From: a virus
Taxonomy: Duplodnaviria; Heunggongvirae; Uroviricota; Caudoviricetes
Strand: one strand, 5' to 3'
Virus record (IMG/VR): IMGVR_UViG_2537562015_000012
Length of the DNA: 18,580 nucleotides
Shown here: one piece after another, positions 15,327 through 17,356 of the stretch
Layout of the letters: each line of letters opens with the position of its first letter
How positions within the stretch are numbered: position 1 is the first letter of the stretch
The notes under the pieces: model-generated
What the model saw: only the letters and a program-made list of their open reading frames with translations
Told to the model about the DNA's origin: nothing
The model's database searches: none
Program-made: the position numbers and the translations under genes

Positions 15327-15445
15327 AGCTTGGGTCGGGATTTCAAATCCGCTCCCCGTTGATGGGGCCGTTACAGTACGCGCATATCCGCTTTATGTGA
15401 AACAGGAAGATTTTTCTGATATCACTGCCACAGCAAAACACCAAT

Positions 15446-15756
15446 TTCGTGACCAGTACGCGCGCGAGGTGTATCAGTTGCAAAATTTTTTGCAGCTGTG
15501 TCCGACCAGTACGCACGCGATGGCGGGGAGCACCATAAAACTGTTCTCTACATAAGACAGAGTGGTGGTGATGTGTTGATTATCGGCGTATATGCGCACA
15601 GGACGCGCTATGACGATGTTTTATGCGGGTACACCAATCACATGTATCTGGTGTGATAAATCGCGTTACATGACCTCTCATGTTGTGCTGGTGGTTATCA
15701 CGACGTTCTGAATCTGGCCTTTGCCTGATATTTTGCGACAAGTACGCGCGCGTAGC
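15446..15756 (+). repeat. dispersed 22-bp repeat family TTTCGTGACCAGTACGCGCGCG (copies B, C, D)
   Basis: Copies at 15446-15470, 15500-15523 (ACGCACGCG variant) and 15731-15756, plus a degenerate copy at 15371-15385. All in the same orientation, each with an alternating CG tract. Confidence 0.6.
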
Positions 15757-15780
15757 ATCGACAGCATACACATTGGATAT

Positions 15781-15981
15781 TCATTTTGTGACCAATGCGA
15801 TAAGTAGCGGGATAAGAATTGATAAAATCAACAGGACGATGATCCACTTCTGATTCTCGTCCATCTTATCTGCTAGGCGACGCTCCATTCCGTGCATATC
15901 ACCGCGAATGGCAATCATCTCATTGCGAACATCCGAGAAGTGGTTGGCTTGATGTTCAATGTGTGGCGTTCTGCCTTTCAT
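15781..15981 (-). CDS. small tail-anchored membrane protein (66 aa)
   Basis: Polar N-terminal 45 aa followed by C-terminal hydrophobic helix WIIVLLILSILIPLLIALV. Lies 79 bp downstream of, and on the same strand as, the 16061..16516 gene. Confidence 0.4.
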   Translation of the reverse strand: MKGRTPHIEHQANHFSDVRNEMIAIRGDMHGMERRLADKMDENQKWIIVLLILSILIPLLIALVTK

Positions 15982-16060
15982 TCCTGATCCTCACCTATCG
16001 TCACCACCTGCTGGTGTATAAAGGTATTGGCCCAAGCAGCTTTCTAATGGGCACTCATGT

Positions 16061-16516
16061 TTATACGCTGACCTTACAATCAATCACCGCTTTTAACTTT
16101 TCAGCATTGCTTCCCTGACGCTTCCACGCGCTGTAAATATCTTTATCCCACGCTTTACCAGCTTTTGTTTGATAGCCTGCTTCATTGATCCGTTCAGCTA
16201 TCACACGCCCATTATCAAATCCCTGTCGGATGGTATCGGCAATGATCTTTATAACTGCCGTTTCGTTATATGGCTTTGGTGGGATGTTCGGCTTTCCGGC
16301 AATAAGCGACGCAGCGGCTTTTTCCATGCGCTCCACCAGCCCAAGCATTCGTGAATCAATAGACTTTTCCGGCTGTCCCAGCTTCATGCGAATCGCATCA
16401 ACAAGCCAGGAGGTTTTATCCCCTCCAGAAGCGAGAACAGACCGATTAAACTCATCCTGCAATTCAGATGGGATGCGGAACGCGACCAGATTAGATTTGC
16501 TCATTGCAAAGACCAT
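16061..16516 (-). CDS. RHH-domain DNA-binding protein (151 aa) with uncharacterised C-terminal domain
   Basis: N-terminus SNLVAFRIPSELQDEFNRSVLASGGDKTSWLVDAIRMKL fits a ribbon-helix-helix pattern (beta-strand, helix A, G-x-T-S turn, helix B). A palindrome ACAGT-ATACC-ACTGT sits just upstream of the start. Confidence 0.55.
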   Translation of the reverse strand: MVFAMSKSNLVAFRIPSELQDEFNRSVLASGGDKTSWLVDAIRMKLGQPEKSIDSRMLGLVERMEKAAASLIAGKPNIPPKPYNETAVIKIIADTIRQGFDNGRVIAERINEAGYQTKAGKAWDKDIYSAWKRQGSNAEKLKAVIDCKVSV

Positions 16517-16617
16517 ATCAGTGAGTAATATCCATACAGTATACCACTGTATAACACTGTTATACGCTCAAATATCAACCAGAAAATAACGGACCAATCA
16601 CAAAGCTATCGCTGTGT

Positions 16618-16731
16618 TGTTGGTTCAGAGCTGGACTGTGTTGGTTCAAAATGAGTTGATGTTGGTTCAATATTTCTGAAAAAACACAATAAAAACAACG
16701 ATCTTTACAAATTGAACCAACTGAACCAACA
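16618..16731. promoter_or_regulatory. iteron/operator array: three TGTTGGTTCA direct repeats at exact 21-bp spacing plus two inverted copies abutting the promoter of the PerC-like gene
   Basis: TGTTGGTTCA at 16618, 16639 and 16660; inverted TTGAACCAAC at 16712-16721 and TGAACCAACA at 16722-16731; TATAAT at 16748-16753; ATG at 16767. Confidence 0.6.
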
Positions 16732-16766
16732 CCTTTTTGCTTATCTATATAATCTGAGAGGCAGAA

Positions 16767-17054
16767 ATGATAAGGGACAGGAAAGCTGAAGAGCTGGAGT
16801 CAAAAGGGCTATACCGGAGAGCTGCCGCACGATGGGCAGAAGTCATGATGCTGGCAGATGGCGATAAAGAACGTGAACATGCAGCAAACAGACGCTCTGA
16901 ATGTATCCGTAAGGCGGCACGCCAACCAGCAACTACAGACAGATTCGGAGATTTAAGACAGGCAGTTAAGCGGACTCATTCGGCTCTTGGTATGGATGAG
17001 GAAGCGAGAGGGTACTTCAGGCGTTATCGCGATAAAGATTGCCAGAGACAGTAA
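16767..17054 (+). CDS. PerC-family transcriptional activator-like protein (95 aa)
   Basis: N-terminal ELESKGLYRRAAARWAEVM resembles the PerC/Pch family signature as I recall it; size typical. Call by eye, not verified. Confidence 0.5.
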   Translation: MIRDRKAEELESKGLYRRAAARWAEVMMLADGDKEREHAANRRSECIRKAARQPATTDRFGDLRQAVKRTHSALGMDEEARGYFRRYRDKDCQRQ

Positions 17055-17330
17055 TGCTCTCTCTGTTTTGGCAAATTACCCCTCACTTTGAAGGGATCGG
17101 AGCTATAAAAATGGTGTTATCCGGCTTCCTCAAATTTAGGTTTTCGAAAGAATCAATGGGTTAGGTCATCGTGCAAATTTGCACTCTGCCAGCCAACGCA
17201 ATTTCTCGTTGGCGGAAATATCAGGTATTTACTGAACGAACGGTCTACCAGTCTGTTCAGTTACCAGTTGCACATGGCTGTTTCATGTGAGAACGGAGGT
17301 TTTTTCGGACATCGCTATTGGGTACAGCAA

Positions 17331-17356
17331 TTTCACGAGCAATACGCGCGCGCAGG
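17331..17356 (+). repeat. fifth copy of the 22-bp CGCGCGCG-containing repeat family
   Basis: TTTCACGAGCAATACGCGCGCGCAGG aligns with copies at 15446, 15500 and 15731. Confidence 0.55.

Follow-up and report, generated by a model that had tools for sequence, protein, structure and literature searches.

Identity of the Repeat Family

The IMG/VR virus record IMGVR_UViG_2537562015_000012 (Caudoviricetes), whose full 18,580 nucleotides we call the window, comprises a ∼17.6-kb island that is inserted between yicC and dinD in Escherichia coli of the enterotoxigenic (ETEC) type. It carries several short repeats in one orientation, each with an alternating CG tract, and the locus raises the question of what these repeats are and what they do. 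Sequence comparison securely identifies them as orphans of the Sf6-type small terminase gene (terS): non-coding copies of its constrained core, the 20-odd bases that are best conserved in the gene. This origin was not recognized in the preliminary description of the repeats. The copies lie toward the right end of the island at the borders of modules, where they act as recombination joints; beyond this, we tentatively favor the explanation that they would mimic a phage packaging signal.

Reading of the window together with a repeat finder revealed a direct-repeat family on the plus strand with four clear and two partial copies (c1–c6, Table 1). The five copies listed in the preliminary description were all found, on the plus strand and within 1–4 bases of where they had been reported, and no RefSeq coding sequence overlaps c1–c5, which agrees with the intergenic placement given there. 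The sixth, c6, was absent from that list and overlaps the last codons of a minus-strand open reading frame (ORF) of 66 amino acids. With up to 3 mismatches allowed, the 22-mer gave 2 matches in the window (0.00 in shuffles), and the 12-mer AGTACGCGCGCG with up to 2 mismatches gave 5, a number reached in 0 of 200 shuffles (mean, 0.91). The core GA[CG]NANTACGC[GA] occurred four times, always on the plus strand, against a calculated expectation of ∼0.14. Because these counts far exceed those in shuffled sequence, the family is not due to chance.

A pattern scan of viral contigs with the motif returned 42 loci. Many of the matches beyond the E. coli block lay in ORFs of 120–200 amino acids reading ...RWL....EFRDQYARARE.QAD..., which were assigned to PF20901 (Sf6_terminase; E = 3.5e-42), and tblastn recovered gene 1 of phage Sf6 itself. 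In Sf6-type terS the motif DNA encodes (E)FRD(Q/K)YARA, and codons 55–63 of Sf6 gene 1 (GATTTTCGCGACAAGTACGCGAAGGCA) align with the window copies. Compared with individual terS alleles, c2 was identical at 18 of 18 positions to TTTCGTGACCAGTACGCG of an enteric Sf6-like allele (L187 type), c3 at 16 of 16 to an L212-type allele, c4 at 14 of 14 (GCGACAAGTACGCG) to nucleotides 169–182 of Sf6 gene 1, and c5 at 21 of 22 to an L245-type allele. The four good copies differ from one another only at positions that vary among functional terS alleles, and the best-matching allele is a different one for each copy. Apart from this piece, no part of terS was found anywhere in the window, and a profile hidden Markov model of TerS gave no match (E < 1) within 600 nt on either side of any copy.

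A coding role for the copies was rejected: a D-Q-Y-A-R frame is kept, but the copies stand in differing frames, are flanked by stop codons, and carry indels of CG units, the length of the CG tract differing among relatives by such units. Pfam and NCBIfam gave no family for the ORF fragments around the copies. A structured RNA or hairpin was likewise dropped, since no stable hairpin was found at the copies (folding z-scores, −0.39 to +2.25) and Rfam gave no family match, just two chance miRNA hits far under the gathering scores. A promoter and terminator scan gave no signal at the copies, and no dyad symmetry was found in the motif besides the CG tract itself. In the relatives L016, L031, and L045, a single ORF of 135 amino acids runs through c2 and c3 and ends in ...GGYHKTVLYMRQSGGDVLIIGVYAHRTRY; this end is reminiscent of RelE/ParE toxins, with no Pfam match. 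The counterpart of this ORF in the window (15340–15656) is split into two frames around c2–c3.

DNA-level Constraint in Functional terS Genes

The functional terS genes were gathered by degenerate peptide patterns, which introduce no codon bias, and 14 genes with less than 75% amino acid identity were compared. The Tyr of the motif was encoded by TAC in 14 of 14 genes (background, 46%), the Asp by GAC in 10 of 10 (background, 41%), and the following Ala by GCG in 10 of 14 (background, 24%). TAC, GAC, and GCG had the three top codon-bias scores among all conserved terS columns; elsewhere in these genes, Tyr and Asp columns were without such bias. Within the Sf6 clade, synonymous diversity was 0.18 at codons 55–61 as compared with 0.45–0.6 nearby. 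A second minimum (0.14) was seen at codons 70–77 (SIFEEIFE), about 40 nt downstream of the motif; it may belong to the motif's cis site as a second half, or it may reflect mosaic exchange in the recent past.

Because the GAC-NAN-TAC-GCG codons show the strongest synonymous constraint of the gene, this terS stretch is constrained as DNA and not merely through the protein that it encodes; it is a cis-acting DNA site, probably pac. A pac signal is expected to be unique, and the core is found at just one place in the 39 kb of the Sf6 genome. We infer that the constrained stretch makes up all or part of the pac recognition site used by this terminase family. Cis packaging signals within the small terminase gene have been described: the 22-bp pac of P22 lies inside terS (gene 3), and the passage of bioRxiv 10.1101/851345 that cites Leavitt 2013 places the pac of Sf6 inside terS (gene 1). 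The P22 pac sequence and its TerS family are unrelated to the motif, and the window copies differ from both cases in lying outside any terS gene.

Distribution in E. coli and in Other Bacteria

Among 5,426 complete E. coli genomes, the 461-bp stretch around c1–c4 (15330–15790) was present in 545, always in the chromosome. A multi-variant motif query found the family in 560 of these genomes, at 1–6 places each (median, 2), and only one place was on a plasmid. No high copy number throughout the chromosome was seen, and the preliminary description was right to set the family apart from the repetitive extragenic palindromic (REP) and enterobacterial repetitive intergenic consensus (ERIC) sequences. 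Like the window family, REP sequences with the bacterial interspersed mosaic elements (BIME) and ERIC sequences are short intergenic repeats, but they are palindromes spread over the whole genome in many copies, whereas the window family is found in 10% of the genomes, in islands and prophages, and forms no hairpin. Full-length Sf6-type terS was present in 232 of the 5,426 genomes; therefore, potential helpers of this type are available. About 400 E. coli genomes share only nucleotides 335–423 of Sf6 gene 1, beside a gene for a PBSX-type large terminase; in these, the N-terminal (DNA-binding) part of terS has been swapped and the end proximal to the large terminase (TerL) kept.

The same pattern was used to scan contigs from one genome per species, which yielded 44 loci: 4 full terS genes, 1 unrelated long ORF, and 39 orphans in non-coding DNA. 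The orphans came from Neisseria, Rodentibacter, Fluctibacter, Bradyrhizobium, Roseibium, Roseovarius, Acetobacter, Acidobacteria, and others, representing several phyla, and their frames are short, some of them with stop codons (e.g. TTT TAA GAC). Coverage by the TerS profile was bimodal, extending over either positions 1–123 or only about 47–62, with three partial exceptions (one frameshifted pseudogene, L030, and two longer relics). P4-type integrases and Toprim/DUF927 primase-helicases were recurrent neighbors of the orphans: primase-helicases with genes ending ∼200 nt upstream at 10 loci, P4-type integrases at 8, and Toprim primases at 6. Beyond integrase and primase-helicase, no common partner emerged from a survey of 20 neighboring proteins from other taxa, which showed mixed cargo (an MmeI-type restriction enzyme, Schlafen, a nuclease, and housekeeping genes).

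One Neisseria island has the order ssrA - int - motif - ... - primase - helicase - motif - GTTACC iterons. In the Neisseria polysaccharea locus L054, dense GTTACC / TTGTTACC / GGTAACAA iterons follow right after the orphan motif (7500–7900 of the reverse-complemented locus), and they are probably the origin of replication of this P4-type island, which is integrated at ssrA. Relatives of the Neisseria island were retrieved without bias through the helicase protein, which gave 4 loci, two of them too short; retrieval based on PerC returned only contigs that were already in the comparison.

Copies at Mosaic Joints

The preliminary description had noted that the copies flank a gene block and had offered, as one possibility, that they are remnants marking a module boundary. 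Both points are borne out: c4 and c5 bracket the 66-amino acid ORF, a ribbon-helix-helix (RHH)-type gene, and the PerC gene, and mosaic break points fall at copy edges in related E. coli loci. Many relatives match the window up to position 15761, 9 nt past c4, beyond which their cargo differs until homology resumes inside the RHH gene; ImmA/IrrE and other genes are found at the cargo position in other relatives. In another relative, the conserved attR-proximal segment begins exactly at c5, with a different left flank. The sequence of relative L018 switches right after c3, and relative L005 has a 53-bp deletion with its crossover inside c2/c3, leaving a single hybrid copy. Prophage remnants at thrW show the order copy - cargo - PerC - copy, and the Neisseria islands differ by mini-cassettes bordered by partial motif copies.

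Because the break points and the deletion fall at the copies, the module-boundary reading holds, and comparison with relatives shows the copies to be joints where recombination swaps or deletes cargo. They act as joints because they are the only near-identity shared by unrelated modules and incoming phage terS genes. As short conserved sequences at breaks between unrelated modules, the copies resemble the boundary sequences of lambdoid phages, of which bsq2–bsq7 are annotated in the Sf6 record; these differ in being neither derived from terS nor repeated four to six times in one orientation. Boundary (linker) sequences of phage HK620 were reportedly described by Clark and colleagues in 2001, and we know of no report of bsq elements outside lambdoid phages. 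Chi (GCTGGTGG) occurs at 12 sites on both strands of the 18.6 kb (e.g. 15687–15694), against 0.5 in shuffles; the average in E. coli is about one per 5 kb, and the window is denser. A special role of the Chi beside c4 was dropped, because Chi is common across the whole window and its position there is without meaning.

Proposed Packaging-signal Mimicry and Alternative Explanations

We favor, with a probability of about 40%, the explanation that the copies are packaging-signal mimics for a P22-like helper phage and also serve as recombination joints. With an integrase, AlpA, a primase-helicase, and iterons, and with no packaging genes, the island is equipped to excise and replicate. When a P22-like helper with an Sf6-type terminase grew in the cell, its TerS ring would bind the copies, TerL would cut near them, and headful packaging would begin. 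The packaged substrate would be the excised, replicating island or, alternatively, the flanking chromosome if packaging started from c5, which lies 85 nt from attR and points toward it. The break points seen in relatives would then be a side effect. We favor packaging mimicry because the array is the only packaging-signal-like thing in an island without packaging genes, because the same stretch is a cis site in phage terS, and because the orphans recur in P4-type islands and islands resembling phage-inducible chromosomal islands (PICIs), with a precedent in the phage-inducible chromosomal island-like element (PLE).

P4 and the PICIs of Gram-negative bacteria are known for mimicry of cos sites. 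These integrative satellites with P4-type integrase, AlpA, and primase borrow the packaging signal of a helper, as is proposed for the window; theirs are one-copy cos sites for cos-type terminases, whereas the window signal would be pac-type and addressed to a headful, P22-like helper. The Vibrio satellite PLE needs a 14-bp mimic of the pac of phage ICP1, and this mimic adjoins the origin of replication of PLE (Boyd and Seed, bioRxiv 10.1101/2024.04.22.590561). PLE is a satellite without a helper terminase, and its 14 bp, exact (within about 89 bp) and near the origin, are required for transduction; the window shows 14–18 bp of identity with helper-type terS DNA, near iterons. PLE differs in having a single copy of an intergenic ICP1 site that has been experimentally tested, whereas the 4–6 putative mimics of the window derive from inside the terS coding sequence, represent several alleles, and recur across phyla.

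Several observations weigh against packaging mimicry. The c1–c4 block is also found in a complete Sf6-like prophage with its own terS, where it lies ∼14.1 kb downstream of the terS start, after the gp16 and sieA-position genes; the block is therefore not satellite-specific. Similarly, three Neisseria loci with an orphan motif encode a Terminase_2 TerS of their own. No terminase annotation was found among the E. coli matches listed for the motif query, and none of the phage records has a long exact match to the copies. Enteric Sf6-type terS reads TACGCGAAGGCA, whereas the island copies read TACGCGCGCG, and the enteric genes have GCGAAGGCA at the place where the island copies have GCGCGCG, so that identity with local helpers amounts to only 14–18 nt. 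Within E. coli, about 9% of sites are variable in both the motif and its flanks; the motif is no better conserved, and because the two vary alike, a test for purifying selection is uninformative. In relatives, c3 is decaying (GCACACG, TATGCACACG). As a positive control for the codon test, P22 gene 3 offered too little diversity, all 80 loci being 99–100% identical. TerS-pac binding is weak and hard to demonstrate even at known sites. The Sf6 pac is said to have been placed by Leavitt and colleagues in 2013 in the part of the gene encoding the DNA-binding domain, and the motif (codons 56–63) presumably lies at the edge of that part.

Some of these observations also bear on the possibility that the copies are recombination linkers only, that is, short homologies with each other and with phage terS at which phage or host recombinases produce crossovers, without a packaging role, and which persist via repeated exchange or gene conversion. 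The parity of motif and flanks in E. coli and the presence of the c1–c4 block in a full phage agree with it, as do the hybrid c2/c3 copy of L005, the divergence points 9 nt after c4, immediately left of c5, and right after c3 in L018, the mini-cassettes of Neisseria, the copy variants that mirror terS alleles, and the annotated bsq sequences known in lambdoid phages. Linkers alone leave unexplained the synonymous constraint of real terS genes exactly at this stretch, the recurring position after primase-helicase genes, and the trimming of independent orphans on both sides to the same 25–45 bp across phyla with almost no intermediates; in addition, 16–22 bp is short for efficient homologous recombination. 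We consider this main alternative, that the copies are nothing but linkers, somewhat unlikely.

The remaining explanations are less probable still. Were a leftward transcript (RHH, 66-amino acid ORF, block, sieA-position gene) to carry c6, c4, c3, c2, and c1, it could act as an antisense or decoy RNA against the best-conserved part of helper terS mRNA, interfering with superinfection beside an exclusion gene. The neighboring genes left of PerC are all on the minus strand, so that read-through would yield antisense copies; different copies match different terS alleles, and in the corresponding region of P22, which adjoins sieA, an antisense RNA (sar) is at work. The scan showed no promoter or terminator signal for such a transcript, however, and Rfam gave no match; c5 is without an obvious minus-strand transcript, and the orphan mostly points the same way as its upstream gene in other taxa and would yield sense RNA, which together make an antisense role quite improbable. 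The preliminary description had also suggested binding sites for an element-encoded regulator (AlpA, the RHH protein, or PerC), and we found no support for this. Several same-orientation intergenic copies do lie near regulator genes, and the spacing of both c2–c3 and c4–c6 is 53 bp, about five helical turns. However, the motif is the terS coding core and turns up in other phyla, in unrelated elements without these regulators, the RHH-PerC intergenic region holds its own, different iterons (TGTTGGTTCA), and the copies are away from recognizable promoters and have no dyad symmetry beyond the CG tract; operators are thus very unlikely. Ordinary decay of a terS pseudogene, with neither function nor a special recombination role, is hardly credible: terS-like sequence (AKH.., RW..) is still faintly recognizable for 15–30 nt to the left of c2, c5, and the post-PerC copy, and the frameshifted pseudogene L030 exists, but decay does not fit the bimodal profile coverage (full length or only about 47–62), the presence of this one tiny piece 4–6 times in 2 kb, in one orientation and with no other terS part in the window, or the recurrence of that piece across phyla.

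Implications

A broader extension of packaging mimicry, which we think rather unlikely, is that GAC-NAR-TAC-GCG(CGCG), 12–25 bp, would be a portable pac for the whole Sf6-type terminase family across phyla, with orphans hitching rides on helpers. The E. coli multi-allele array would then widen the helper range, and the outermost copy would be able to launch lateral transduction; the carriers would be P4-type islands, PICI-like elements, and prophage remnants that share no other sequence with their helpers. Lateral transduction from c5, if true, would proceed from a copy that faces dinD, yicG, ligB, gmk, rpoZ, and spoT.

Packaging-signal mimicry and boundary sequences are both already known. 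In the literature searched, we found no description of a family-wide, synonymously constrained motif internal to terS that also circulates as multi-copy, multi-allele orphans in islands of many phyla. To our knowledge, pac has been identified in just a handful of phages. If the terS stretch is pac, it would allow pac to be defined by sequence for a very large terminase family. It would also provide a simple bioinformatic marker for elements that parasitize such phages in Proteobacteria and beyond, would explain the spread of islands without packaging genes, including ETEC-associated islands with PerC-type regulators, and would explain why cargo changes at fixed joints. Even if the copies were linkers only, they would be a documented instance of a linker of terS origin driving the exchange of cassettes in islands and prophages.

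The Island and Its Other Features

Besides a P4-type integrase, AlpA, AntA, and a DUF5906 primase, the island encodes gp20-like and gp16-like ejection proteins of the P22 type, PerC, an RHH-type protein, and, at the sieA position, a membrane protein; no terminase, capsid, head, or tail genes were found among the island genes. Ejection-protein genes (gp20-like, 451 amino acids; gp16-like, 698 amino acids) together with the membrane-protein gene (10647–15326) are an odd set for a satellite. The order gp16, sieA(−), gap, small ORF(−), RHH(−), operators, (+) gene is that of the P22 16-sieA-orf59a-mnt-Pant region, and no relic of P22's own pac site was found in the sieA-mnt gap of P22. The att core CGTGTACATA..GGTGTACATAAT is present at both attL and attR. 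Because this core differs from the copies and lies outside them, the copies are all inside the island and none is an att site; an att-site identity for the motif was rejected on this ground, and in Neisseria a motif-bearing island has ssrA as its integration site.

Table 1. Repeat copies and associated features of the island, in window coordinates
Feature	Position	Strand	Description
c1	15371-15385	+	Degenerate half copy GTTACAGTACGCGCA; only CAGTACGCGC retained
c2	15445-15466	+	TTTCGTGACCAGTACGCGCGCG
c3	15498-15519	+	GTGTCCGACCAGTACGCACGCG
c4	15731-15752	+	TTTTGCGACAAGTACGCGCGCG; right end of conserved block
c6	15784-15799	+	Partial copy TTTTGTGACCAATGCG, within variable cargo, 53 nt after c4
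c5	17331-17352	+	TTTCACGAGCAATACGCGCGCG; left end of conserved attR-proximal segment
Conserved block with c1-c4	15195-15761		From 5' end of sieA-position membrane-protein gene to 9 nt past c4
Swappable cargo c4-c5	15762-17330		66-amino acid ORF (-), RHH-type gene (-), iterons, PerC (+), roi fragment
Iterons TGTTGGTTCA	16618-16731	three direct + two inverted	Between RHH-type gene and PerC
attR core	17437-17460	+	CGTGTACATAAGGGTGTACATAAT; matches attL adjoining yicC

The iterons between the RHH-type gene and PerC gave 8 matches as compared with 1.3 in shuffles. The relative L002 has a second iteron cluster, 75% similar, directly 3' of its primase gene; the iterons look like either a P4-style ori/crr pair or the RHH operator.

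In the non-coding DNA between PerC and c5, a 60-bp fragment (17106–17165) is 92% identical to the roi/antirepressor gene of HK620, H-19B, and Shiga toxin (Stx) phages, a relic of lambdoid nin-region DNA. An IS1 at about 14079–14846 is inserted at the extreme 3' end of the gp16-like gene. Among the best matches listed, it is common to only three genomes (H1–H3, those with an IS1 annotation); the other listed genomes with this island end match from query base 48 (window 14847), i.e. without IS1. A LexA box (CTGTATATAAATACAG), recognized by the LexA consensus, lies at 17695–17710 before dinD, just outside attR, and the SOS operator of dinD has been left intact by the insertion of the island.

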